Assembly (NCBI GenBank): GCA_021802705.1
Contig: JAJZRL010000001.1
Coordinates: 20,379-84,378 of the forward strand
From: a bacterium
GTDB taxonomy: Bacteria > Patescibacteriota > Minisyncoccia > Phycocordibacterales > Phycocordibacteraceae
Length of the DNA stretch: 64,000 nt
Direction: 5' to 3'
Positions 5,734 to 47,641 of this stretch are shown piece after piece. The position numbers and the translations under genes were made by a program. Under the pieces are notes generated by a model that saw nothing but the letters and a program-made list of their open reading frames with translations, did not search any database and was not told the DNA's origin. Positions within the stretch are counted from its first letter, which is position 1. The number at the start of each line of letters is the position of its first letter.

Positions 5734-7134
5734 TTATCTTTGCGTCATATAGGCGATTGCATCGGCTGCACCGTAAGAACTATTCTCATCTTGCATGAGA
5801 TGACGTAAGAAACTGACATCGTCACCCATAGTGAAGATCGGCGGTTCATTCGGATTCCCGAGCCCTGCAGCTGAGAAAAGTCCGTTGCACAGACACCGAA
5901 CCCCTATAGTGTCTTCTGATTTTCCACCTTTGAGGAGATACGTATCGAGAGGTTCGCTCGAGCAACGGAAGCCAATCTTGCCGTCCTTTCGCTCATACGG
6001 AACAATTAAGATGGACAGGTCACATATCCGCGTGCGAGCGGCATACACTGTCGGGTCGGATTGCGTGCCCGGCAATTGCACCACCTTGAACGGAAATCCT
6101 GTCGGTGACGTGCTCGGATCCGTGCGAATGAAGAGTTCGCCACGATAGCCACGACGCCTCATCTCGGAACGGAACGCGGGCTGCACGCCGGAATCTTCGC
6201 TGAGTGCAAAGATAGAACCAGCCTGGACACCCTTCGCACCCAGTGCCTGTGCTTTCGCGAGACCTTCGGGCGAGGCGAACGACCCGCCAATCCAGAACGG
6301 GATGCCCAGGTCTCGAAGCTTTTGGAATGCCACCTCGTCTTTTGGGCCGTAGACAGACTGTCCGCTTTCATCGAACACTCCTTTCTCTCGAGGCGGTGCA
6401 TTGTGGCCTCCCGCAGTCGGTAGTTCGACAACGAACCCCTGAATACTGCCTCGCGACAAGCGTTTGACCATGAGCGATGCCAGCACGTCTGTCGAGACAA
6501 TAGGGAGAAATCCTGGCCGCTTGAGTTCAGGAAGCTTCGCTTTGAAGAAGGCGCTCGGATCGAAACTGACGGTCCCCGCCCCACTGCTTTTTCCCTCTAT
6601 CGAAACACGATAGATCGGCATGCCTCCTGCGGCAATCGCATCGAGAACACTCGGTATCTGAAGCGTTATTCCCGCCCCCATCGTCACGAAATCAACGTTA
6701 GCAAGCATCGCTCCAGTGATATGGTAGATGTGAGGAATCTGGATTTTCTCCAAGTAATTCACGCTGACCGGATTCTCGTGCCCTTCTTTGGCAAGCCACA
6801 CGAACGCAAAACTTGCCGCTACCGTAAGCGCAATCAGGTCAGCGCGCGGTTGCATGCTAAATGCTGGCACCACCTTGAATTCTTGATCGGCGGAAATACC
6901 ACCCTCGACGAAGTACTTTTTAATGATACGTTCGGCTATGCCCGGGAACGGGAAGTGCGCGAGCGCACGTCGGTAGTCACCGCCTGGATCTCCAGACTGG
7001 AGAATTCTGGCTAGCAAACGTTCGGCGCCGACGCAAGAGACCGTGCCGAGCGCGCCATGACAAGAGCATACTTTGGCGAGAAAAGGAGTCGATATGTAGA
7101 CCCCCATCCCTCCCTGGATGATTGATCGATTCAT
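5734..7134 (-). CDS. Nitronate monooxygenase (2-nitropropane dioxygenase/FabK-like) family flavoprotein, long form
   Basis: N-terminal IIQGGMGVYIS...AKVCSCHGALGTVS motif of the NMO family. TIM-barrel-like spacing. Confidence 0.65.
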   Translation of the reverse strand: MNRSIIQGGMGVYISTPFLAKVCSCHGALGTVSCVGAERLLARILQSGDPGGDYRRALAHFPFPGIAERIIKKYFVEGGISADQEFKVVPAFSMQPRADLIALTVAASFAFVWLAKEGHENPVSVNYLEKIQIPHIYHITGAMLANVDFVTMGAGITLQIPSVLDAIAAGGMPIYRVSIEGKSSGAGTVSFDPSAFFKAKLPELKRPGFLPIVSTDVLASLMVKRLSRGSIQGFVVELPTAGGHNAPPREKGVFDESGQSVYGPKDEVAFQKLRDLGIPFWIGGSFASPEGLAKAQALGAKGVQAGSIFALSEDSGVQPAFRSEMRRRGYRGELFIRTDPSTSPTGFPFKVVQLPGTQSDPTVYAARTRICDLSILIVPYERKDGKIGFRCSSEPLDTYLLKGGKSEDTIGVRCLCNGLFSAAGLGNPNEPPIFTMGDDVSFLRHLMQDENSSYGAADAIAYMTQR

Positions 7135-7287
7135 GAGACTCTCCTTATCAAGGAACTGGTTGACGTTTTGACAGATACAACTGCCTCTCGCTAGATCCTA
7201 ACAAGATTTGACGAAAAAAACAGCAGACAACGTTTCGTTTGAGCGCACAAAACGGGACGTGGAGAAACATGCAATGTATACCGAGTG

Positions 7288-7360
7288 TGGACCCAAGGAG
7301 ATTCGAACTCCTGACCCCCTCATTGCAAATGAGGTGCTCTACCAACTGAGCTATGGGCCC
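7288..7360 (-). tRNA. tRNA-Ala (anticodon TGC)
   Basis: GGGCCCATAGCTCAGTTGGTAGAGC...loop TTTGCAA...GGTTCGAATCTCCTTGGGTCCA. G3:U70. Confidence 0.8.
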
Positions 7361-7449
7361 GCCAAAGCTCTCTCAGGCCTATCACCTGAAATTGCTGCGG
7401 TGGACGGTACTATACCATCCTAAGCAAAAATTTTTAAGCTGGTCTCGAG

Positions 7450-8412
7450 CTATCTCCGAAGTGCGAGGTCGACGAGGTGGGAGAGAAAATCAGGAAACGA
7501 TATACCGACCGCGGCAAGAGATTTCGGCAAGAGTGACTCGTTCGCGAGCGCCGGAAGAGCGTTCGTTTCGAGATAGTACGCTCCTCGGGGCGTGAGGATG
7601 AAATCCGAGCGCGAATAATGCCGCAGGCCAAGTGTGCGATGTATCGCTTTCGCGGCGCTCTGAAGTTCTTCCGTTACGGTACGCGAAAAGTTTCCGGGAC
7701 ATCGCTCGCGCGTCATGCCGGAATATTTCATCTCATAGGAAAGGAAGTCGCCATACGGAGACAGTATTTCGACCGTTGGGAGCGCGTAGAGCGTCTCGCC
7801 ACGGAACTTTTCGATGATACCGACCGTGGCTTCCCGTCCTCGGACGTACTCTTCGACAAGAACGCCGGCTGCTCCTGTCGCCATAAGCTGCTCGATGGCC
7901 GCGAATATCGGGGCATACCCGCCAACGATAGAAACGCCGATGGATGAACCCCAGCCGACGGGCTTGACAACGACTGGCTGAGAGAAGGTACGGATCACCT
8001 CGCGAACGACCGCTTCGCAGTCTGTTTTCCGCTCGACGTAACGGAACTTCGGTACAAGCAGCCCTATCTCCTGCGCTCGCGTCTTCGAGAGGAGCTTATG
8101 CATGGCGAAATAAGAACCGAAAGAAGTCGTGCCTGCATAGGGGATTCCGAAACAACCGAGGAGCCTCTGTATCTCTCCACCTTCGCCGTATTCGCCGTGA
8201 AGCCCGACAAGGGCGACATCAATCTGACGCAGCGCGCGGCTCGGCGTCGTCGGACGCCCGCGGTCGTGCCACTTTCCCTCTCTATCGATATAAATATCGC
8301 GTCCGACGAACCGTTCCTCCGGAAGATTCGCGAGCACAGCCGCTCCCGTACGGAGAGAAACATCGTGTTCGCGCGATGGACCGCCTCGCAGTACTCCTAC
8401 GATGGTGTGCAT
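7450..8412 (-). CDS. ddl: D-alanine--D-alanine ligase
   Basis: GGPSREHDVSL, HGEYGEGGEIQRLLG, KPVGWGSSIGV, YLETNALPA motifs of the ATP-grasp Ddl family. Confidence 0.85.
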   Translation of the reverse strand: MHTIVGVLRGGPSREHDVSLRTGAAVLANLPEERFVGRDIYIDREGKWHDRGRPTTPSRALRQIDVALVGLHGEYGEGGEIQRLLGCFGIPYAGTTSFGSYFAMHKLLSKTRAQEIGLLVPKFRYVERKTDCEAVVREVIRTFSQPVVVKPVGWGSSIGVSIVGGYAPIFAAIEQLMATGAAGVLVEEYVRGREATVGIIEKFRGETLYALPTVEILSPYGDFLSYEMKYSGMTRERCPGNFSRTVTEELQSAAKAIHRTLGLRHYSRSDFILTPRGAYYLETNALPALANESLLPKSLAAVGISFPDFLSHLVDLALRR

Positions 8413-8427
8413 GTGAGGTAGTATACC

Positions 8428-9654
8428 TCACCTTGCACGGAGCTCTTTCGAACGTGCCGCGCGATGTTTTGCAAGCGCGAAACGATGAGCTTCGGCATTC
8501 GCGAGAACGATATCGGTTTCGGAAACGGAAATGCTGGCAGCACGGACGCCGAGAATTTCACGCGGGCGATGCCGTTCATCCTTCACTACTGTTATGACAG
8601 GGATAGAAAGGCCCGCCGCCGCGAGCGCTTCTTCCGCCGTCTTCTTCTGGACTCTGCCGCCATCGACGACGATAACGTCAGGCAACGGCCACTCAGGATG
8701 TCCGAGTCGGCGCGAAAGGATTTCCCTGAGAGAACCGATGTCGTCGTCCTTCTTGAGTCCGCGGATGCGGAACGTGCGATACGCTTTCTTCACGGGCATA
8801 CCCGCTTCGACGACGACCATGACGCCGATTGCGTTGGTTCCGGCAAGATGGGCTGTGTCATAGGCCTCGATACGCATTTCTCCCGTCTCCTCGCGGTCTT
8901 CTTTGATAAGCGAAACGTCCTGCACATGATCGAGAGCATAGAGCTCGCGACGAAGCTCGGCCGCATCTTCGAAACGTTCTTCCTTCGCCGCCTGCCTCAT
9001 CTGTTTTTCGAGTGACTTGCGCAATTCGGTCGTGCGGCCGGCAAGGAAGAGCGCGATGTGCCGGATCGCTCGCCGGTATGCCTTCGCGTCGAGCGCGCGG
9101 GGATATTGCCCGATCTGCCGGTTAAACTCGACCTTCGCGAGCGCATGCTTGCTCTTTGTCATAACCGGCTTTGGCGTATCGTAGAAAGGGAAAATCTTAC
9201 GGATGAGCCGGAGCGCGTCGCGGAGCTGCGATCCGGATGGAAACGGCCCGAATATCTTCACGATTGGAAAGTCAGACTTTCCAGAATCAAGGTCTTTGCC
9301 GCGCATAGTGAGCACGCGCGGCCACTCCTCTTTCGTGATGACCGCATAAAGGAAAGTCTTGTCATCCTTCCCTTCCACGTTCGCCTTCGGCTGATATTTC
9401 TTGATAAGCGCCGCTTCACGCACCAAAGCTTCGAGCACGGTCAGCGTCGGCTCGAACGCGACCGTTCCGGCTTTCGTCACCATGTCGACAATACGCGGAC
9501 CTCGGGTCACGATGAGGTCGTCATCAAAATAGCTTCTCACGCGGTCGCGAAGCGATGTCGCTTTGCCGACATAGAGCACCGTCCGGCCTTTCTTGAAAAG
9601 ATACACGCCCGGTGTGTCGGGCAGATCGAGCTTATGAAGGTCGCTTCTTTGCAT
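8428..9654 (-). CDS. uvrC: Excinuclease ABC subunit C, short form (GIY-YIG + endonuclease; lacks C-terminal HhH)
   Basis: [49 protein letters not shown] motif. Start placed at the internal Met (9654), which overlaps the uvrA stop by about 23 nt. Confidence 0.75.
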   Translation of the reverse strand: MQRSDLHKLDLPDTPGVYLFKKGRTVLYVGKATSLRDRVRSYFDDDLIVTRGPRIVDMVTKAGTVAFEPTLTVLEALVREAALIKKYQPKANVEGKDDKTFLYAVITKEEWPRVLTMRGKDLDSGKSDFPIVKIFGPFPSGSQLRDALRLIRKIFPFYDTPKPVMTKSKHALAKVEFNRQIGQYPRALDAKAYRRAIRHIALFLAGRTTELRKSLEKQMRQAAKEERFEDAAELRRELYALDHVQDVSLIKEDREETGEMRIEAYDTAHLAGTNAIGVMVVVEAGMPVKKAYRTFRIRGLKKDDDIGSLREILSRRLGHPEWPLPDVIVVDGGRVQKKTAEEALAAAGLSIPVITVVKDERHRPREILGVRAASISVSETDIVLANAEAHRFALAKHRAARSKELRAR

Positions 9655-12289
9655 GGCGGTGCTTAAGCGTTCTCGAAAGGTAAACGCCGGTGTGAGAGTT
9701 GTCAGTCGCGGCGACTTCTTCAGGAGTACCTTTGGCGATAACCTTACCGCCGCCTTCACCGCCTTCGGGACCGAAATCAATGAGATGATCAGCGCTCTTG
9801 ATGACGTCAAGGTTGTGTTCGATGACGACGACCGTGTTGCCGCGCGCAACGAGCTCCTGGAGGATCTCGATAAGCTTCTTCACGTCGTCGTAATGGAGTC
9901 CGACGGTAGGCTCGTCGAGGAGGTAGAGCGTCTTCATCGTTGTCGGACGGTAAAGTTCCGAGGCGATCTTTATGCGCTGAGCTTCGCCGCCCGATAAGGT
10001 CGTCGCGCTCTGGCCGAGCGTAAGGTATTCGAGTCCGGTGGCGTTCAGCGAGCTCAGCCGTTCCTGGATAGCGGGGATATCTTCGAAGAATCTTTCCGCT
10101 TCCTCGACCGTCATTTCGAGCACGTCGCGGATATTCCTGCCGCGATAAGTCACTTCCAGCGTTTCCTTCATGAAGCGCGTACCGTTGCAGACATCGCAGG
10201 TTACGTAGACCGTCGGCAGGAAGTGCATCTCAACCGCGATAGAGCCGTTGCCCTGACAAGCCTCGCAGCGTCCGCCAGGCACGTTGAACGAGAAACGGCC
10301 GGGCTTCCATCCGCGAGCCCGCGCTTCGCTCGTAGCTGCAAAGAGGTCGCGGATATGCGTAAACGCGCCGGTATACGTAGCGGGATTAGACCGCGGCGTA
10401 CGGCCGATCGGTGACTGATCGATGAGGATCGCGCGCCCGATATACTCGGTACCGGCGAGCGAGGAGACATGCTCGAGCTTGGATTCGCGTTTCGCGAAGC
10501 GCTTGGCGATGTTCTTATGAAGGATGTCGTAAAGGAAGGTTGACTTGCCGGAGCCGGAAACGCCGGTGATGCAGACGAGTTTGCCGAGCGGCAGATCGAT
10601 GTTCTGGTTGACGAGATTATGGAGGGTCGCGCCACGCACTTTTATCCACCCGCGCTCGGCAGTGCGGCGCGTCTCGGGCACCGCTATGCTGTTTTCCTGG
10701 CGCAGGTAGGAGAGCGTGCGAGAGCCGCTCTTATTCTCTTTTGCTTCAAGAAGATCGGAGAGCCAACCCGAAACGACAACCTTGCCGCCATGCGTGCCGG
10801 CGCCGGGCCCGATGTCGACGATGTAGTCAGAGGCATAGATCGTATCCTCGTCATGCTCGACCACGATGATCGTGTTACCGAGGTCTTTGAGCGTAAGGAG
10901 GGTTTTGATAAGCCGGTCGTTGTCGCGCTGATGCAGCCCGACGGTCGGTTCATCGAGCACGTAGAGCGCGCCGGTGAGCCCGCTTCCGAGCTGAGAAGCG
11001 AGACGGATGCGCTGCGCCTCGCCTCCCGAGAGCGTCGCGGCCGATCGGTCGAGCGTGAGATAATCGAGCCCGACGTTCAGCATGAAGGTAAGACGGCTTT
11101 CGATCTCTTTGAGGATCGGTGCTGCTATGTCGAATTTCATGTCGGTAAGCTCGATCGAATCGATAAAATCTTTCGCGTCGCGGATCGACATCGACGTGAA
11201 ATCCACGATGTTCTTGCCAAGTCCCTTGTCTTTGTCGCCTTTCAGGTATACGCGCAGAGCTTCGGGACGCAGGCGTTTGCCTTCGCACGCCGGACACGCT
11301 TCCTCGGAAAAGAGCGTCTTGGTACCGAGCCCGTTACAGGCCGGGCACGCGCCGTAAGGCGAGTTGAATGAAAAGAGGCGCGGTTCGACTTCCGGGAATG
11401 ACGTACCATCGTCCGGACAAATGAATTTTGACGAGAGCGTTTCGACCGTGCTATCGGCGTGACCGATCTTCACGAGACCATCCGCTTCCTTAAGCGCGAG
11501 CTCGAGCGCTTCGGAGAGACGCTCGCGCGCCGTTGCGGCCGAACGTGTGAACTCGGAGACATAGATGCTGTCGACAATCGCATCGATGCTGTGGCGCTTG
11601 TTGCGGTCGAGAACGATCTTCTCGCGCAGGTTGTGCGGTGCGCCGTCAATCACCACCTTCTCGAAACCTTTGCCGAGGAGATCGTAAAGAAGCTGATAGT
11701 ATTCGCCCTTGCGCCCGACGACCACCGGTGCGTAAATGACGACCGCTCTCTTGTCGACGGCCACGCCGAGCACTTCGCCGGCTCCTTTCGGCTTATCCTG
11801 TCTTGCCTCGATGTGCGAGAAAACGAGTTTTATCATCTCCTCCTTCGAGAGACGCGAGATGTGCACGTCGTGATGGATGCAGTAGGGCTGGCCCGCACGG
11901 GCATACAAAACGCGCAGGTAGTCGTAAATCTCGGTGACGGTCGCCACGGTCGAACGCGGATTGTTGGAACGGCTTTTCTGGTCTATGGAAATGGCCGGCG
12001 AGAGGCCCGTGATCTCATCGACGTCGGGTTTCGCCATCTGATTCAGGAACTGGCGCGCATACGCGGAAAGCGACTCGACATACCGCCGCTGCCCTTCGGC
12101 GAAAATCGTATCGAAAGCGAGCGAAGACTTGCCCGAACCGGAGAGGCCGGTGATAACCGTCATCGCCCCGCGCGGCATCTCGACATCGATATCCTTCAGA
12201 TTATGCGTGCGCGCGCCCTTCACGCGGATCCAGTCGCTCCCGTGTCTGTGCGTATGTTCCTCTTTTTCTTTTGCGGTCTTTTTCGGCAT
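9632..12289 (-). CDS. uvrA: Excinuclease ABC subunit A
   Basis: Two ABC ATPase modules ([12 protein letters not shown]..., [11 protein letters not shown]...). Zinc-finger Cys clusters. LSGGEAQR signature twice. Start at internal Met 12289 ([10 protein letters not shown]...). Confidence 0.9.
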
Positions 12290-15340: not shown

Positions 15341-16553
15341 AGTATTCGCGGATGAAGTCCGCGCGGTATTCGTCAAACCGTCCGTTTAAAATGGCTTCGC
15401 GCGCACCGGCGACGAGCTTCAGGATGAAACCGACATTGTGCATGGAAGCAATGGTAGCGCCAAGAAACTCTTTGGCGCGAATGAGGTGCGCGACATACGC
15501 TCGCGTAAAACCTTCGGTACCCGCGATGACTGTGTCAGGATCGAGCGGTCCGAAATCGTCCTTATACTTCTCGCCCGTGAGGTGGATGATGCCTCGCTTG
15601 GTGTAGAGAGAACCGTGACGGCCGATGCGGGTCGGCGCGACGCAGTCGAAAAGATCCATGCCGTTAGCGATGCCTTCAAGAATATCTCCGGGCTCGCCGA
15701 TGCCGAGGAAATGCCGCGGAAGCTCTTCCGGCAGTTCTTCCACGGCTGCTGAAAGCGCGCCGCGCATGTCTTCTTTTGAAAACGAACCGCCGATGCCGAT
15801 GCCGTCGAAGCCGAGAGAGGCTATCGTGCGCGCGGATTCGCGGCGCAGGTCTTCATGCCGACCGCCCTGCACGATGCCGAAGAGAGCCTGTCGCTCTCGC
15901 GCTCCAAGATTCTGCCGATGAGCGGCGAGTGACCGTTCCGCCCATCGGTGGGTACGCAGCATCGCTTCGCGTTGATAATCATACGGCTCCACAGGCGACG
16001 TGCACTCGTCAAAGGCGAAAAATATGTCGGCGCCGAGAGCGTGCTGTATCTCGACGGAACGTTCCGGCGTAAAGCGATGCAATGATCCGTCGATGTGCGA
16101 CGTGAACGAGACGCCTTCTTCATCGATGACCGCGAGCTGGCCGTGCTGGCTCGCGACGCTTTCATCATAAACCGCGAGCTGGTCCTCCTTCTCTCCGGTC
16201 TCGCCCTTCACGAATTTTGAAAGCGTCTTTCCGAAGGCCGCGCCGAGCGAGAAGACTTGGAAGCCGCCCGAGTCGGTCATCGTAGGTCCTTGCCACCCCA
16301 TAAACGTTCCCAGTCCGCCCGCGTTCCGCACGACCGCCTCTCCCGGCTGGAGATAGAGGTGGTAGGTGTTCGCGAGCACGACGTCGGCGCCAAGTCCTGA
16401 AAGGGTGCTTGGCAGAATACCTTTCACATCCGCCTTCGTGCCGACCGGCACGAAGGCGGGCGTGCGGATGACGCCGTGCGAGGTCGCGAGAGCGCCGGCG
16501 CGCGCGCCGGCGTGCGGCGCGCGCGCCTCTATGGCAAAAGAGAAGGCACTCAT
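15333..16553 (-). CDS. tgt: Queuine tRNA-ribosyltransferase
   Basis: TPAFVPVGTKADVKG, TYHLYLQPGE and C-terminal Zn-site pattern of Tgt. The stop overlaps the uvrB start by 8 nt. Confidence 0.9.
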   Translation of the reverse strand: MSAFSFAIEARAPHAGARAGALATSHGVIRTPAFVPVGTKADVKGILPSTLSGLGADVVLANTYHLYLQPGEAVVRNAGGLGTFMGWQGPTMTDSGGFQVFSLGAAFGKTLSKFVKGETGEKEDQLAVYDESVASQHGQLAVIDEEGVSFTSHIDGSLHRFTPERSVEIQHALGADIFFAFDECTSPVEPYDYQREAMLRTHRWAERSLAAHRQNLGARERQALFGIVQGGRHEDLRRESARTIASLGFDGIGIGGSFSKEDMRGALSAAVEELPEELPRHFLGIGEPGDILEGIANGMDLFDCVAPTRIGRHGSLYTKRGIIHLTGEKYKDDFGPLDPDTVIAGTEGFTRAYVAHLIRAKEFLGATIASMHNVGFILKLVAGAREAILNGRFDEYRADFIREYYG

Positions 16554-32462: not shown

Positions 32463-33092
32463 TTAAGACAGGAGCGCAAACATGAAGGTTTGCGTGCCTT
32501 CGCACCATTTGAATCCGCACCTTACCGATTCCTTATCATAGACGATGTGCATCCTCTGCGCCCGCGCGATACTCTCCTTGCGAGAGAGCGCACAGCCGAC
32601 TTCCGGATTCCCGAGCGGATAATAATCCGATTGTCGGGCGGGAAGCACATGGACCGTCTCGATCCCCAGTATGCGGCCGAATGAGATAGCGACGCGATAC
32701 AGGAGCCTCTCCCAATGGAGCGGGCGAAGATGTTCCTTTCTCCCCCGCACGCCTTGCACCTGCCGGACGACGAGACGGTTCGACCTGATCTCGAAGCCGA
32801 TAGCGGCGATCGGGATGACCGCTGACCCTTCCCGTGCGCAGAGCACGAACCCGAAGCTGGTTTCCCAGTAGATCTCCGGATGCGGCATGCGCCGGCCAGA
32901 GTTTCTTGCGGCCGAAAAATCAAGCAGGTATCGGCTTGCGTTATGACGATGCGTTTGCGACTTCTTTATGTGTTCTTCGATGAGCGCGTGAAAACCGTCA
33001 GGCGCGCTTCGGGACAGGAAGTCGCGGATTCCCTGTGCCCGCGCGGCAAAACGACGTTCAAAGAAGTTCTGCAGAAGGGCGATAGGATTCAC
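32463..33092 (-). CDS. Hypothetical protein (209 aa), possibly divergent GNAT-like fold
   Basis: GTG start with GGGAG SD. Own TTGACA-like promoter element upstream. VRQVQGVRGRKE resembles a GNAT motif-A Q/RxxGxG/A, but weakly. Confidence 0.35.
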   Translation of the reverse strand: MNPIALLQNFFERRFAARAQGIRDFLSRSAPDGFHALIEEHIKKSQTHRHNASRYLLDFSAARNSGRRMPHPEIYWETSFGFVLCAREGSAVIPIAAIGFEIRSNRLVVRQVQGVRGRKEHLRPLHWERLLYRVAISFGRILGIETVHVLPARQSDYYPLGNPEVGCALSRKESIARAQRMHIVYDKESVRCGFKWCEGTQTFMFALLS

Positions 33093-33242: not shown

Positions 33243-33809
33243 TCATGAGGTTGATTGCCTGTTCATGATTCCATAGTGCTTCACGTTTATTCGAACCCCT
33301 TTCTTTACCCGGGCGGATACGAAAAGCCCATCCTGGGTGAAACCGACACCCTCGAGCACTTTGGCGATGCCGATGTTGCCCGCCTCTGCCTCAGCGCTCA
33401 CACGCATGAGGCCAAGGGTATCGAAGGCGTAGTCGACAATTGCGCGCACGACCTCGGTCGCCGCACCTTTGCCCCACCAGGTCTTGTCGCCGATGACGAT
33501 GCCTATCTCCGCAATCTTGTGATACTCGTTTATGTCGGTGAGCGCCACCGTGCCGATGGTCTCACCAGTTTTCGTTTCGATCGACCAGTAGCGGCCTTCT
33601 TCATCGGCTTCGCATTCTTTAATGTATGCGTACTGTCCGGCGATATCCTGCGACTCGTTCATCGGCTCGGGCATGTGCTCCTGCACCGCTTCGTCCACGT
33701 CCCACTTCTGCCAGAGCTCCGCGTCCGACTCTTTGAAGGGACGGATGAGATAATGCTCGGTCTCAAGGATCGGCGATTTCATGAGGTGAGTATAGCAAAC
33801 ATCGGTCAC
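33243..33809 (-). CDS. GNAT family N-acetyltransferase, RimJ/RimL-like
   Basis: YLIRPFKESDAELW...IGIVIGDKTWWGKGAATEVVRAIVDYAF...GFTQDG pattern of RimL/RimJ-type GNATs. Confidence 0.75.
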   Translation of the reverse strand: MTDVCYTHLMKSPILETEHYLIRPFKESDAELWQKWDVDEAVQEHMPEPMNESQDIAGQYAYIKECEADEEGRYWSIETKTGETIGTVALTDINEYHKIAEIGIVIGDKTWWGKGAATEVVRAIVDYAFDTLGLMRVSAEAEAGNIGIAKVLEGVGFTQDGLFVSARVKKGVRINVKHYGIMNRQSTS

Positions 33810-33830
33810 GCTGATGTTAGAGTACCGTCA

Positions 33831-33947
33831 TGAAGATAAGACCGGTAAAACAGAAAGACGATACGGCCTGCGGCCCGACTTCCATTCTTATGGCCAGCCG
33901 TTATTTGGGTACGAAACTCATCTTCGAAGAGATGAGGACAGTATAAC
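33831..33947 (+). pseudogene. Remnant of a C39 bacteriocin-processing peptidase domain (N-terminal 38 codons then stop)
   Basis: Own translation MKIRPVKQKDDTACGPTSILMASRYLGTKLIFEEMRTV*. Q-x5-6-CGP(A/T)...LM is the catalytic Cys motif of C39 peptidase/ABC exporter N-termini. Different frame from track ORF 33814..34068. Confidence 0.4.
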
Positions 33948-34077
33948 GCTCTCAGAGCCAGAGACAGGCAGGCTGGTCACCTTAGAAAAGATGAAGTTCA
34001 TATGGCTTTGGATGAGTTACGACGATATGTGGTATCCGGAGAAGGATACCGATATCAAACTGCGATAGATGTGTGTA

Positions 34078-34134: not shown

Positions 34135-35376
34135 CTAGCCGTGGATGTATGCTAGCAAAGCCATGAGAACATGGAACACCAGACTGCTGGTTATGTCTCG
34201 ATGATCCTGGTCTGGGCACAATTCCACAATGTCAATACCGATTACCTCATTGTGTAGGCACACAGCTTCGAAAAGCCGCAACAACTGGCGTGGTTGCATG
34301 CCCATGGGAACGGGAGTGCCGGTTCCCGGCGCGTAGACGGGATCAAGAACGTCTACGTCCAGCGAGATATAGCACTTCTTTCCCACCGGAAGACTTGCGA
34401 CGACCTGTGCCCAGCTGCTCTCGATCTCGGCTTGCATAACGGTCGTGCATCGATTGTTTTCTTCCGGCGTCCCGGGAAAACCCCGTATGCCAAGCTGAAC
34501 GATCGTATGCGTTTGGCATGTATGCAACATCCGCCGCATCACGTTGCCATGGTGGTGAGTGGTCCCAGGAATCCATTCCCCGAGGTCGGTATGGGCATCG
34601 AAATGCACCACAACCGTCTCTCCACCGTGCACACTCGCGCAGCCAGCGATAGCCGGCTCAGAGATGGAATGATCACCACCGACACAAACCGGGATGCCGC
34701 CTCTCTTGCAAATTTCCGCAGTCGCACGCTTTATGCGAGAAAAGAATCGCTCCGGAGATTCTCCAAGGATGTGAGAAACGTTCCCCACGTCCACGAACTG
34801 ACTACCCACAAGCGTCATGCGGCCTAGTTCTGCGTTGAACCAGCCACGATTAGCGCGCGTGAAGATGCCGCGATCATAGGTCAGGAAACGACCCGAGATT
34901 TCCCGGAGCTTGTTCGGTCCTAGTTTCGCGCCTGATTTGCCGGTAGTACCGAAGTCCACTCCGGCCCCACAGAACACGAACGCGCCAGGAACCACCTCTT
35001 CCAACTTACCCGAAGGGCAGCAAACGAAGGTCAGTGGCTGAACTGCGACCACATCGCTATCCGCCAGTTCCTGAGAACGTGCCAGCAACGAATCCTTCTC
35101 GCCGCTCCAACAGAGGACCGACTGCATAATCAACTCATCGACATATACTGCAATCGATCGTTGATCTGCTTGATCCTCAATCCCGAGCGCGCAGTATAGC
35201 TCGTCCAAGGTGATTGGGGTCTGGCACATCCGTAACAGATATAGCGCTTGTTCGTTTACAGATACTCGTGTGCCAGCAATACTATTGAAGATGACCTGTT
35301 CGCCGATTTTTGCATCGTACGATTCAAGTGCCAAGTGAGCTGAGAGCTCAAACGTGCGTGACGTTCGGTTGTCCAT
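34135..35376 (-). CDS. Arginase/agmatinase (ureohydrolase) family enzyme with N-terminal PqqD-like RiPP-recognition-element (RRE) domain
   Basis: Intact binuclear-Mn motifs GGDHS, DAHTD, SLDVDVLDP and substrate loop FCGAGVDFGTTGKSGAKLGP. N-terminal about 110 aa VNEQALYLLRMCQTPITLDELYCALGI...VYVDELIMQSVL is PqqD/RRE-like. GAGGAG SD before ATG 35376. Confidence 0.65.
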   Translation of the reverse strand: MDNRTSRTFELSAHLALESYDAKIGEQVIFNSIAGTRVSVNEQALYLLRMCQTPITLDELYCALGIEDQADQRSIAVYVDELIMQSVLCWSGEKDSLLARSQELADSDVVAVQPLTFVCCPSGKLEEVVPGAFVFCGAGVDFGTTGKSGAKLGPNKLREISGRFLTYDRGIFTRANRGWFNAELGRMTLVGSQFVDVGNVSHILGESPERFFSRIKRATAEICKRGGIPVCVGGDHSISEPAIAGCASVHGGETVVVHFDAHTDLGEWIPGTTHHHGNVMRRMLHTCQTHTIVQLGIRGFPGTPEENNRCTTVMQAEIESSWAQVVASLPVGKKCYISLDVDVLDPVYAPGTGTPVPMGMQPRQLLRLFEAVCLHNEVIGIDIVELCPDQDHRDITSSLVFHVLMALLAYIHG

Positions 35377-36463
35377 CGGTAATCTCCTCATCTGATTGCG
35401 TGCCGCAGACGGCACAGTCGTGACGTTTGCGGTATGCCCGCAGGTGCAGGCCATAGGTCAGAAAGTCGACTTCCGCTGCCTGGTTAATCAGGGTCGGCGG
35501 AGCGAAACCTGTCATGACCTTGAGCGCTTCTATGACATGGTAGTTCGCGATAATGGCACTGATTGCCCCCAGATTCCCGCCCTTTATTTGGGCGGGAGTG
35601 ACCTGTAGGTGTATATACCCCGCAGAACGTAGTTGATGCTCGAGCGTATGCTCATAACACAACCAGCACCCTGACCGTTTTGGAACGATAGTCGGGCCGA
35701 TAAACCCTAAGTGACCATCGTATCCGCCACACAAGATGTGTGGAATCCCTCTTGGATAACATGCTCTGGAAACGATACGGTTTATCTCGTCCGTCCCGGG
35801 TTCATCAGCACAGCAAATCACAAGATCGGCACCTGTGGCTACCTCCGAGCAAGCTTGAAGAGAATCCACCAGACGATGCACCTGCTCCACCTCAAGCGCC
35901 GGATCGACGAGCCGCAATTTCTGAGCAAGCATCTCTGCCTTAGGCAGGCCGATACAGGCTATGTCGTATAGGCATTGCCTGTTTAGGTTCGCTAACTCGA
36001 CCACATCATTGTCCACTAGCGTCAGCTTCTTTACCCCTGCCAGCACTAGACCGTATGCGACCCAACTGCCGATACCGCCAAGACCGATGATAGCTACGTG
36101 AGAAGCATCTATCGCCTCTTGCATGTCGGGACTTTCGTCGTTTGCAAACCCGGCAAGAAAATTCGCTTGGGTCGCAAAGCGGGTTCCCTCATAGCGATCG
36201 TAGATACGGTCACGTGTACGCAGCAATTTCTGGTCGTACAATAGTGCCGCCAAGCCACTTACGGACGCTTCGCTCACGCCAATCGCCGTTGATATATCGG
36301 CTATCGTGTGAGTTCCGTCGAACATCCGGACGCATCGCAGCGTATGCGCATCAACCTCGAAAGGCATGATCACACTGCTGCTTTCGACCAGGAAGTTGAG
36401 TTCATATCCACCTGCCAACGGCCGATACAGGACGGATATGCCATCTCTAATGGCAGGTTTCAT
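35348..36463 (-). CDS. MccB-like ThiF/E1 adenylyltransferase with N-terminal RRE/peptide-clamp domain
   Basis: E1 nucleotide motif VAIIGLGGIGSWVAYGLVLAGVKKLTLVDNDVVELANLNRQ. Two CxxC pairs (CWLC, CAVC) as in MccB/MoeB Zn site. N-terminal VDAHTLRCVRMFDGTHTIADISTAIGVSEASVSGLAALLYDQKLL is RRE-like. AAAGGAGAG SD. Confidence 0.7.
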   Translation of the reverse strand: MKPAIRDGISVLYRPLAGGYELNFLVESSSVIMPFEVDAHTLRCVRMFDGTHTIADISTAIGVSEASVSGLAALLYDQKLLRTRDRIYDRYEGTRFATQANFLAGFANDESPDMQEAIDASHVAIIGLGGIGSWVAYGLVLAGVKKLTLVDNDVVELANLNRQCLYDIACIGLPKAEMLAQKLRLVDPALEVEQVHRLVDSLQACSEVATGADLVICCADEPGTDEINRIVSRACYPRGIPHILCGGYDGHLGFIGPTIVPKRSGCWLCYEHTLEHQLRSAGYIHLQVTPAQIKGGNLGAISAIIANYHVIEALKVMTGFAPPTLINQAAEVDFLTYGLHLRAYRKRHDCAVCGTQSDEEITDGQPNVTHV

Positions 36464-36530
36464 GAGACTCTCCTTTCAGACGTGAAAGGGGATCGCTCGC
36501 GCAATCCCCCTAGTTGTAACCGACCTGAGA

Positions 36531-36728
36531 TTAGGCGCGGCGGTGACGGAGACCCCGCATGTATGCGTCGTCGGAACGACGCGCCAACGGGGTGATTTTC
36601 AGCTCAGCGACCTTGAACTTGAAGGGTTGCTGATTGGCGCTGGTGCTGGGCTTCTGATTCCCGGCGTTTGCGGTTGCGGTGTGCATATTCATCTCCATGA
36701 TTGACGTCAACGAACGGATAAGAACCAT
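36531..36728 (-). CDS. Candidate precursor peptide (51-65 aa, Arg-rich C-terminus)
   Basis: Only coding frame in the 280-nt gap upstream of the E1 gene: M(VLIRSLTSIMEMN)MHTATANAGNQKPSTSANQQPFKFKVAELKITPLARRSDDAYMRGLRHRRA*. Internal GGAG gives a good SD for the MHTATA start. Confidence 0.35.
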   Translation of the reverse strand: MVLIRSLTSIMEMNMHTATANAGNQKPSTSANQQPFKFKVAELKITPLARRSDDAYMRGLRHRRA

Positions 36729-36746
36729 TTCCTATCCACAAGAAAT

Positions 36747-37727
36747 CTACAACAAAGCGCGATAAAAGTCAATGTAAACGCCCGCAAGTTCTGCGGCGTT
36801 CTCGGCCTCCATGAGCTGCGCGCGTAGCGGAGCCGCGCCTTCAAACCCGATAACGAACGCCTTGATGTGCTTCTTGAGTATCGAAAAATTCTTCGGCGGC
36901 GAGAGCTTCTCGAAAGCGTACGCAAGCTCCATAAGCGCCGAAAATTTCTCTTCGCGCGGGACATCGTCAGCTTTTCGTCCGGCAAAAACCCACGGATTGC
37001 CGAAAAGCGCGCGACCGAGCATAGCACCGTCGCATCCCGACGCCGCAACTTTCGCCTTCGCATCCTCGAGATCGCTCACGTCCCCGTTTCCGATGAGCAG
37101 CACTTCCGGATCGACGGCATCGCGGATCTCTACCGCCTTTTTCATGAGATTCCAATCAGCCGGCACGAGCGAGAGGTCTTTGCGGGTACGTAAATGGAGC
37201 GTGATGGCGGCCGGAGCGGCCTTAAGAAGCGTCGGGAGCCACTCATCGAGAGTCTCTTTGTGGTATCCGACACGGGTCTTGACGGAAACCGGCAAGCCGC
37301 TCGCTCTTTTCGCGGCATGGATAACCGCCTGCGCGATTTCCGGAGTCCGTATCATCGCGGAACCGCAGCCTTGTTTCTCGACACTCGCATCCGGACAACC
37401 CATATTGATATCGATGCCGTCAAAACCGAGCTTCTCGATAAGGGCGGCGGCGTACGCGATCATATCGGGATCGCTTGAGAATACTTGCGCGACGATCGGG
37501 CGTTCGGCAGGGCTCTTCTTGAGGTCGCGCATGAGCGGATTCTCTTCATCAGGCACCTTCTTTATCTCGCGCGTATGGTAGAGCCCGTCCGCTGAAACGA
37601 ACTCGGTCCAGAAGACATCGGGTGCGCCGCGGGCCGCGACAAGCGCGCGAAACGCCGCATCGGTCACGTCCGCCATCGGCGCCATGACGAAAAAAGGTTT
37701 TGGCAACTTGCTCCAAAATGATGCCAT
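36747..37727 (-). CDS. tRNA-dihydrouridine synthase
   Basis: FVMAPMADVTD...INMGCP...catalytic Cys context and TIM-barrel Dus family pattern. Confidence 0.85.
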   Translation of the reverse strand: MASFWSKLPKPFFVMAPMADVTDAAFRALVAARGAPDVFWTEFVSADGLYHTREIKKVPDEENPLMRDLKKSPAERPIVAQVFSSDPDMIAYAAALIEKLGFDGIDINMGCPDASVEKQGCGSAMIRTPEIAQAVIHAAKRASGLPVSVKTRVGYHKETLDEWLPTLLKAAPAAITLHLRTRKDLSLVPADWNLMKKAVEIRDAVDPEVLLIGNGDVSDLEDAKAKVAASGCDGAMLGRALFGNPWVFAGRKADDVPREEKFSALMELAYAFEKLSPPKNFSILKKHIKAFVIGFEGAAPLRAQLMEAENAAELAGVYIDFYRALL

Positions 37728-46768: not shown

Positions 46769-47641
46769 ATGGCGATACAAATACTCTGCGTCGCAGGACC
46801 AACCGCTTCGGGCAAATCCTCACGCGCGGTCGAAGAAGCGCTTGTGCGCGGCGGTGAGATTATTTCGGTCGATTCGCGGCAAGTGTATCGCGGGCTTGAT
46901 ATCGGAACTGAAAAAATAACCCATGAAGAGATGCGGGGTGTCCCGCACCACCTCATTGACATACGCGATCCGCGCGACGCTTATAGCGCCGGAGATTTCG
47001 TCAAAGATGCGACGCGGCTTATCAAAGACATCTCCGCGCGCAAGAAACTTCCCATCCTTGCAGGCGGGACGCATTTTTATTTTGATGCTTTACTGCGCGG
47101 TCTTCCGACGGATGTTGATGCGAATCCTGCGCTGCGTGCAGAACTCGAAAGACTTTCAAGCGAAGAATTGTATGCGCGGGTGGAGGCTGCTGACAAGCGC
47201 CGCGCGATCGAGCTTGATCCGCAGAATCGTCGGCGCCTCATCCGAGCTCTTGAGATTATCGAAACGAGAGGAGTCGTGCCACCGCGCGCCCAGAACGATG
47301 ACGGAGAGCCGCGTTATACGGTCGAATGGATCGTTATCGACCCGCCATGCGAAGAGTTGCGAGAAAAGATCGACGCGCGTCTCGCATCCGCAATAGCGCG
47401 CGGGCTCATCGATGAAGTACGGCGCGTGCGGGAGGAAGTTGGTGACGCCCGCTTGAACGAACTCGGCCTCGAATACCGAGTCACCGGTGAATTCCTCCGC
47501 TCGAACGTTGACTTGGCGGTTTCACCGCCAAGTCAGCTTGGCGGTGAAACCGCCAAGCTGCTCAATGCGTTGTCGGCAAAGCTCTGGCAGTATGCGCGTC
47601 GCCAGAAAGCATGGCTGCGCAAACTGGACCTCTCGAAATAG
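46769..47641 (+). CDS. miaA: tRNA dimethylallyltransferase
   Basis: ILCVAGPTASGKS P-loop, DSRQVYRGLDIGT motif. C-terminal YARRQKAWLRK. Start taken at MAIQIL (the track ORF start 46682 would overlap the divergent prx gene). Confidence 0.85.
   Translation: MAIQILCVAGPTASGKSSRAVEEALVRGGEIISVDSRQVYRGLDIGTEKITHEEMRGVPHHLIDIRDPRDAYSAGDFVKDATRLIKDISARKKLPILAGGTHFYFDALLRGLPTDVDANPALRAELERLSSEELYARVEAADKRRAIELDPQNRRRLIRALEIIETRGVVPPRAQNDDGEPRYTVEWIVIDPPCEELREKIDARLASAIARGLIDEVRRVREEVGDARLNELGLEYRVTGEFLRSNVDLAVSPPSQLGGETAKLLNALSAKLWQYARRQKAWLRKLDLSK
47512..47557. repeat. Two adjacent 21-nt perfect palindromes, mutually inverted, inside miaA 3' region
   Basis: CTTGGCGGTTTCACCGCCAAG (47512-47532) and CTTGGCGGTGAAACCGCCAAG (47537-47557), in frame (encoding ...LAVSPPSQLGGETAKLL...). 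Confidence 0.5.

Follow-up and report, generated by a model that had tools for sequence, protein, structure and literature searches.

What is encoded between the dus gene and the E1/ThiF-like gene on the minus strand of this 64,000-nt stretch of contig JAJZRL010000001.1 (hereafter the window), and what does the hairpin in that gap do? The minus-strand order here is: dus (end 36747), a small peptide open reading frame (ORF), the hairpin, the E1/ThiF-like gene, and a ureohydrolase gene. The original prediction, made from the letters alone, had read this as a precursor gene and an attenuator-type hairpin ahead of modification enzymes, the arrangement by which operons for peptides made on the ribosome and modified after translation (RiPPs) control stoichiometry. 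The comparative data make it probable that the ORF is the precursor gene of an uncharacterised Patescibacteria RiPP-type cluster, and that the hairpin sets a high substrate-to-enzyme ratio via partial read-through. The cluster runs from the precursor gene (A) through the hairpin to the genes for an E1-like adenylyltransferase (B) and an arginase-fold enzyme (C); genes for a C39 peptidase and a GNAT acetyltransferase lie nearby.

The gap had been described as 280 nt long with a single open frame. It measures 283 nt, and the frame is present; it is not the only one, as the minus strand also holds a 45-aa ORF starting at TTG (36741..36604) and a 118-aa ORF that overlaps dus. Within the gap, the 65-aa frame is the only ORF conserved elsewhere. 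Its conservation was assessed across 52 related loci retrieved via an alignment of E1 homologs (16 from genomes and 36 from metagenomes; almost wholly Patescibacteria), with hairpin and distance statistics calculated on 33 non-redundant loci. By six-frame motif scan and hidden Markov model (HMM) scan, exactly one copy of the peptide ORF is found in 43 of the 52 E1-encoding loci; E1 identity falls to 30% among these 43. The nine loci lacking the peptide comprise: five contigs that end at E1 (L025, L029, L046, L048, L050); two short contigs (L026, L032); one decayed locus (L010); and one outgroup (L014). No second precursor copy was found within the window.

The last 30 residues of the peptide align without gaps over 54 distinct sequences and include two conserved blocks: K-(V/L)-x-I-x-x-L, and the last eight residues, with the consensus R-(G/T)-(L/V/I)-R-R-(R/P)-R-(A/S) (Table). 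The arginine at position -8 is the sole invariant residue, and its distance from the C-terminus is constant throughout the family, the members of which are 30-57 aa long. Two variant C-termini, …LRTVRRRTA and …YKRGLRRTRA (L040 4783-4905; L027 minus strand), indicate that Arg(-2) and Arg(-3) are replaceable; Arg(-8) never is. Nei-Gojobori (NG86) comparison of close pairs over the last 30 codons gave proportions of synonymous differences (pS) of 0.18-0.49 and of nonsynonymous differences (pN) of 0-0.09. For the last eight codons, mean pS is 0.68 versus a pN of 0.14. These values indicate that the peptide ORF is under purifying selection. The conservation of the ORF that had been suggested as a check on the proposal is thus observed, and is greatest at the Arg-rich C-terminus.

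The peptide has no match in the Pfam and NCBIfam profile libraries, and its homologs in databases carry only the annotation 'hypothetical'. A word-indexed database search with the peptide profile returned 35 proteins, and an exhaustive HMMER search identified 27 representative clusters among 1.84 billion proteins. The matches are small, unnamed and free of Pfam domains, and in the HMMER search nearly all of them extend to the final positions of the profile as well as to the C-terminal residue of the matched protein. On this sequence evidence, the ORF is a real conserved gene, and it looks like one that encodes a precursor peptide.

Translation most likely begins at ATG 36686. As predicted, there is an internal Shine-Dalgarno (SD) sequence, GGAG at 36696..36693, positioned 6 nt ahead of this codon to give a product of exactly 51 aa, and the frame closes at 36531 (TAA, 36533..36531). 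The 65-aa ORF is itself a database entry (P0261), and the profile match covers residues 15-65 only; in addition, the Met of a 51-aa homolog (P0259) aligns with M15 of the window ORF. Both observations support the 51-aa start.

The second element is the hairpin. The GGGGGAT...ATCCCC pairing reported for the gap is real and forms part of a stem longer than described, with 11 pairs and a GCGA tetraloop. It has a predicted folding free energy (dG) of about -18.5 kcal/mol, begins 19 nt past the precursor stop and ends 22 nt before the E1 ATG. The TTTCAC noted after it is also present, such that the stem-loop is followed by UCAC, the strong SD AAGGAG and the E1 ATG at 36463. Counted over both strands, the window holds around 44 hairpins of similar quality. 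At this frequency, one located exactly in the 67-nt spacer is not expected by chance. Canonical hairpins with T tails are present elsewhere in the window. An Rfam scan of 36200..37000 at E <= 1 gave a meaningless match to HgcF (14 bits) as its sole result, so the hairpin and leader do not belong to a known RNA family.

Across the related loci, the structure is conserved directly after the ORF, and its sequence is not; the second conservation check suggested with the prediction thus also favours it. Almost all non-redundant loci have a strong hairpin 0-48 nt past the peptide stop; the stems measure 11-18 bp, dG ranges from -16 to -32 kcal/mol, and the sequences are mutually unrelated. Perfect stems downstream of the precursor have a median of 13 bp, and those of dinucleotide shuffles a median of 6 bp. 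Of the 33 loci, 25 have one of 10 bp or more, compared with 3.4% of shuffles. Five or more T residues fall within the 10 nt following the hairpin in at least 17 of the 33 loci, and a consensus scan calls a terminator-like site in L021, L003 and L024.

The hairpin also follows the peptide gene when that gene is moved. It is retained where the gene and the enzymes are divergently oriented (L004, L005, L020, L028, L037), where it lies past the arginase gene (L015, L016, L052), and where it lies ~700 nt upstream (L007). Covariation was evaluated in a closely related alignment (A5), as the cross-subfamily MAFFT alignment (A6) was too divergent to use. In the divergent subgroup, the stem is 98% paired; sliding the 3' partner by 1-3 columns leaves no more than 59%. 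Three stem pairs are changed on both sides, i.e. compensatory, versus 0.8 expected from shuffles. The presence of a hairpin after the stop wherever the gene sits, usually with a T-tract, suggests that it is the precursor's own intrinsic terminator.

Spacing connects this terminator to the enzymes. In 23 of the 33 loci (window included), the peptide gene stands directly before E1, with a gap of 41-109 nt, and in these 23 loci the distance from hairpin end to E1 start is 0-57 nt. Such a distance cannot accommodate both a promoter and a 5' untranslated region, and expression of E1 and the arginase would therefore have to rely on read-through. The scan of the window between the precursor start and the E1 start found no promoter-like site. 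Upstream, a sigma-70-like site in the 3' end of dus is placed for a transcript start ~50 nt before ATG 36686; similar sites precede the precursor in L003 and L024, and not in L021. Together, the conservation of ORF and hairpin and the short hairpin-E1 distance support the precursor-hairpin-enzymes layout of the original prediction.

The hairpin of the window itself is probably a weak terminator at best, and its poor U tract fits a leaky one. In the minimum free energy fold of 36464-36530 (minus strand), UCUC just past the precursor stop pairs with GAGA in the E1 SD region, enclosing the hairpin; a similar outer pairing is seen in L006. One possibility would be that this pairing couples E1 translation to ribosomes finishing the precursor. 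The modelled helix is weak and may be fortuitous.

Table. Features of the peptide locus and conserved positions of the peptide, counted from its C-terminus
Feature	Coordinates	Strand	Basis or detail
Promoter-like site TTGACT-17 nt-TAGATT, sigma-70-like	36744..36772	-	Inside dus 3' end (last codons)
Precursor-peptide ORF, 65 aa from first ATG	36531..36728	-	Probable product MHTATANAGNQKPSTSANQQPFKFKVAELKITPLARRSDDAYMRGLRHRRA, 51 aa from ATG 36686
Stem-loop, 11 bp, GCGA tetraloop	36486..36511	-	Pairs 36511..36501 with 36496..36486
Spacer, 22 nt, with E1 SD AAGGAG (36475..36470)	36464..36485	-	Sequence
E1/ThiF-like adenylyltransferase, 371 aa, N-terminal winged-helix domain of RiPP recognition element (RRE) type (~residues 1-100)	35348..36463	-	Pfam ThiF 2.6e-43
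Ureohydrolase, arginase/agmatinase fold, RRE-like N-domain of ~120 aa	34135..35454	-	PF00491 Arginase 2.9e-57
C39 cysteine peptidase remnant	33830..34077	+	tblastn with intact L017 homolog
GNAT acetyltransferase (Acetyltransf_3)	33243..33809	-	Pfam 1.4e-28; probable start ATG 33782
Peptide position -24			K in 40/54
Peptide position -23			V or L
Peptide position -21			I or V
Peptide position -18			L in 50/54
Peptide position -8			R in 54/54
Peptide position -7			G or T
Peptide position -6			L, V or I
Peptide position -5			R or H
Peptide position -4			R or H
Peptide position -3			R, P or T
Peptide position -2			R in 53/54
Peptide position -1			A in 51/54, S in 3/54

By sequence search of the PDB, the E1 protein is about equally close to MoeB, MccB and ThiF (MccB E-value 2e-18). 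The AlphaFold2 (AF2) model (mean predicted local distance difference test, pLDDT, 86.5) has an N-domain of beta3-alpha3 topology, with three strands and three helices, and the top PDB matches of this model in Foldseek are MccB and PaaA, aligned over 352-372 of 371 columns. The query TM-score (TMq) is ~0.70 for MccB (362-372 columns) and 0.72 for PaaA, with ~18% identity to MccB in the structural alignment. ThiF and MoeB align over ~275 columns only. A full-length match to MccB and PaaA and a partial match to ThiF and MoeB correspond to the architecture of the RiPP ThiF-like adenylyltransferases, and the E1 falls into one broad class with MccB, PaaA, GrcB and EnfB. Among the invariant residues of the E1 are the GxGGxG-loop glycines, NxxRQ and four cysteines (C266, C269, C350, C353), which we take, by analogy with ThiF and MoeB, to be the ATP-binding and Zn-binding sites. 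Weak matches to TIGR03603 and TIGR03882 raised the alternative of a non-catalytic E1 docking protein of the type found with thiazole/oxazole-modified microcins (TOMM/SagC). This was rejected, as no YcaO is found among the conserved neighbour families, and the invariant presumed nucleotide- and metal-binding residues also counter it.

The best PDB relatives of the ureohydrolase are agmatinases. The motifs GGDH, DAHxD and DxD are invariant in 29 homologs, and these are presumably the ligands of the binuclear metal site. The N-domain gives sub-threshold matches to PqqD (0.024) and LanB-N (0.004), and in the AF2 model it folds as beta strands followed by three helices; the fold search returned only relatives of the catalytic domain and none for the N-domain. 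The modelled N-domain is compatible with an RRE. Translation of this gene probably starts at ATG 35376 (413 aa), as homologs are 409-416 aa long. The protein database does not contain the 439-aa ORF as listed, so gene callers must have placed the start further downstream. Taken from ATG 35376, the ureohydrolase ORF shares 29 nt with the E1 ORF; taken from its first ATG, it shares up to 107 nt (35348-35454). The same overlap in related loci (L004, L016) suggests translational coupling. Both genes are routinely mis-annotated, as MoeB/ThiF and as agmatinase. Membership in the OspR family of peptide arginases (PF12640) was ruled out, since the protein matches PF00491 and has no PF12640 match.

The regulatory layout is of an ordinary kind. 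Lantibiotic-type operons also place a stem-loop between a precursor gene and modification genes, and produce a short abundant transcript; the likeness is one of layout only, as the enzyme families and taxa differ. The nearest parallel is microcin C, where experiments have shown that, owing to an intrinsic terminator between mccA and mccB, a short mccA transcript is abundant and a read-through transcript is minor (PMC4231749). Common to both systems are: a short precursor gene; a hairpin terminator; an E1-like enzyme with an N-terminal peptide-binding domain, for which MccB is the best full-length structural match; and a GNAT. In contrast, MccA has 7 aa and ends in the Asn needed for succinimide/phosphoramidate chemistry, whereas the peptides here have 30-57 aa and an Ala or Ser end. 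The present cluster also lacks homologs of MccC, MccD and MccF, and adds the arginase-fold enzyme and the C39 peptidase. Microcin C membership was ruled out, as the C-terminus is never Asn among the 54 sequences.

Two further groups bear on the chemistry. In the ThiF-like RiPP enzymes GrcB and EnfB, the activated C-terminal carboxylate is captured by a thiol, a backbone amide or free amines (PMC12250964). The enterofaecin (EnfA/EnfB) and GRC (GrcA/GrcB) systems resemble this one in having a ThiF-like enzyme with an RRE, or here an RRE-type domain, and a short precursor encoded alongside. They differ in that the precursor family here is a different, Arg-rich one, radical-SAM enzyme and transporter are missing, and the hosts are Patescibacteria, not Bacillota. 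For the arginase, KgrD of the enteropeptins, a PF00491 member, converts peptidyl-Arg to Orn (ornithine), and the OspR family is PF12640, with the motifs DXHXD and EEH(N/H)EAF as well as LDIDLDYFSC (PMC12703449); in the selidamides, arginase action precedes GNAT acylation of Orn (PMC8784127). As in the OspR and KgrD clusters, a ureohydrolase-fold enzyme sits in a RiPP-type cluster beside an Arg-containing core, although here activity on a peptide is a prediction. The enzyme of the window has an RRE-like N-domain of ~120 aa and an E1 partner, whereas theirs are lanthionine synthetases or radical-SAM enzymes. It shares with KgrD the PF00491 fold, invariant presumed metal motifs and a RiPP-type cluster context, and KgrD is the sole PF00491 precedent in RiPPs named in the literature examined.

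A scheme that would accommodate these features begins at the promoter-like site in dus, from which the A transcript would start. Most transcripts would end at the hairpin, giving abundant A mRNA; a minority would read through into the overlapping B and C genes, probably translationally coupled, and the read-through fraction would set the high substrate-to-enzyme ratio. The RRE domains of B and C would bind the K-(V/L)-x-I-x-x-L block as leader, and the last eight residues would be the core. C would then turn one or more Arg into ornithine, and B would adenylate the C-terminal carboxylate. In the favoured, unproven final step, the delta-amine of Orn(-8) would attack the acyl-adenylate and so close an eight-residue side-chain-to-tail lactam. 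This is favoured because R(-8) is the sole invariant residue and lies at a constant distance from the C-terminus, and because GrcB and EnfB activate a carboxylate for intramolecular capture, EnfB also amidating with free amines. Alternative fates of the acyl-adenylate would be C-terminal nucleotidylation, amidation or thiocarboxylate formation. The GNAT might acetylate remaining amines or ornithine, in maturation or self-protection. That the whole constitutes a new RiPP class, largely confined to Patescibacteria (candidate phyla radiation, CPR), in which a leader-guided PF00491 enzyme yields Orn(-8) and an MccB/EnfB-like E1 closes a macrolactam on a poly-Arg/Orn core, is a tentative proposal that we hold to be possible and somewhat improbable as it stands.

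Could the same arrangement arise without a partial terminator, or without a peptide substrate? The hairpin might be a full terminator, with a promoter for the enzymes inside the precursor ORF or the hairpin, or it might be a stem that protects or processes the 3' end after endonucleolytic cleavage, with RNA decay and not read-through setting the stoichiometry. Stable 3' stem-loops are a known means of mRNA stabilisation, and a proper U tract is missing not only from the window hairpin but also from those of L006, L013, L012 and L041. Message stabilisation contributes in the mcc system too (PMC4231749). However, most orthologous hairpins have canonical T tracts, and a hairpin plus T also ends the peptide gene where it stands alone or faces away, which is the behaviour of a terminator; a buried promoter is further opposed by the promoter scan of the window. 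Overall, an explanation other than partial termination seems unlikely. Far less credible, to the point of being negligible, is a chance ORF beside a chance inverted repeat in an ordinary intergenic spacer. Neither a 65-codon ORF nor a 9-11 bp stem is rare in 56% GC DNA, and the peptide has no Pfam or NCBIfam model, but the conservation, purifying selection, co-localisation over 43 loci and hairpin statistics refute this reading.

A more substantial objection to the peptide as substrate is that the small protein could be a carrier or tag with an E1-activated C-terminus, akin to ThiS, MoaD or ubiquitin, with the ureohydrolase and GNAT acting on its target or on agmatine and polyamines. The near-equal sequence similarity of the E1 to MoeB/ThiF and to MccB would suit this, as would the agmatinase and polyamine acetyltransferase relatives of the other two enzymes and the absence of a linked exporter. 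Yet a beta-grasp fold does not fit into a peptide of as few as 30 aa, and the C-terminus is Ala or Ser, not Gly-Gly. Both enzymes also carry N-terminal domains of peptide-binding type, which are missing from free-substrate agmatinases and from ThiF/MoeB; a C39 leader peptidase co-occurs; and an invariant Arg at a fixed distance from the C-terminus suits a substrate better than a tag. A carrier function is accordingly quite improbable, and a precursor gene ahead of a partially terminating hairpin remains the preferred explanation.

Several observations weigh against this preferred explanation. At the hairpin of the window, the stem is followed by only UUU, short of the U-rich tract of an intrinsic terminator, the consensus terminator scan does not call it, and the 96-nt region folds only modestly better than its shuffles (z = -1.79). 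The promoter-like site has 9/12 matches, and the regional count of such sites is not above shuffle expectation, making it weak alone. The start codon of the precursor is uncertain among 36728, 36698, 36692 and 36686. The precursors have no conserved double-glycine cleavage motif (GG, GA, GS), with R-(G/T) at -8/-7 as the nearest candidate, and because of this the leader/core boundary is a guess. No exporter is consistently cluster-linked among the conserved neighbour families of the related loci, and the C39 gene of the window is a pseudogene, with precursor, E1, arginase and GNAT intact. Finally, the lactam chemistry is something we infer in its entirety, and acetylation of Orn(-8) by the GNAT would compete with it.

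The C39 remnant, located with the intact homolog, has lost residues ~36-89 (~54 codons) and carries a frameshift and an in-frame stop that replaces a conserved Trp; what is left are the N-terminal 35 aa in one frame and the C-terminal ~60 aa in another. In this genome the pathway may therefore be impaired or in partial decay, or a different protease may serve it. Thirty related loci have an intact standalone C39 gene of ~160 aa, and these homologs match Pfam Peptidase_C39 (1e-16) and, in the PDB, the ComA peptidase domain. The GNAT has SpeG polyamine N-acetyltransferases as its best PDB relatives, and its homologs are cluster-linked in 15 related loci, with varying positions and orientations.

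Searches of the literature on RiPPs combining E1/ThiF with arginase or ornithine, and on Patescibacteria RiPPs, found no such cluster described (subscription-only papers were outside their scope), and neither arginase nor ornithine comes up in two 2025 reviews of ThiF-like enzymes in RiPPs. This conserved RiPP-type cluster of Patescibacteria is apparently undescribed, and its enzyme pairing unprecedented. Its recognition changes the annotation of three or four genes in many genomes of the group and indicates a dedicated peptide product in organisms thought almost devoid of secondary metabolism. It also offers a candidate new enzyme pair, an E1-like enzyme with a leader-guided PF00491 arginase that would act on peptides; peptide engineering currently takes an interest in both types of enzyme (PMC11118369, PMC12703449). 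The conserved terminator between substrate and enzymes would be a second, independent case of microcin C-type stoichiometry control. Were the macrolactam proposal true, it would define a new E1-plus-arginase reaction pair, in a pathway among the first conserved natural-product pathways of reduced-genome episymbionts.

A few of the related loci are unusual in their own right. L014, from Siminovitchia thermophila (5801-5866, 5944-9950), is the only one of the 16 genome loci whose E1 relative (29% identity) comes from a cultured organism. Its E1 gene lies behind a 21-aa ORF, MKVTKKGEVIREKSCFCVACT, and ahead of genes for a 330-aa protein and an ABC transporter, without an arginase; this has the look of a ThiF-like RiPP cluster of enterofaecin/GRC type, with a core rich in Cys. 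In L002 (7043-8328), the arginase gene is split into two ORFs, and in L010 (5890-6624) the E1 is reduced to its C-terminal 200 aa and the precursor is absent. L009 (DUFX01000066.1) has a complete precursor-hairpin-E1-arginase cluster on a contig binned as 'Candidatus Woesearchaeota archaeon UBA10192', an archaeal label that reflects either mis-binning or transfer between episymbiotic lineages.

Within the window, the GC content of the cluster (0.536 versus 0.562 for the window) is unremarkable, and a horizontal-transfer signal was dropped from consideration. Downstream of the GNAT, a 209-aa ORF (32463-33092, minus strand) has no Pfam or NCBIfam match, was ungrouped in neighbour clustering, and is probably outside the cluster. 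The strongest hairpin of the window is a 48-nt perfect palindrome at 47511-47558, built from the unit CTTGGCGGTTTCACCGCCAAG, with a stem of 21-22 bp and a dG of about -42 kcal/mol. Two neighbouring, very GC-rich perfect palindromes are found at 16429-16460 and 16497-16527, with stems of 13-14 bp, dG values of -27 to -32 kcal/mol and a spacing of 37 nt.

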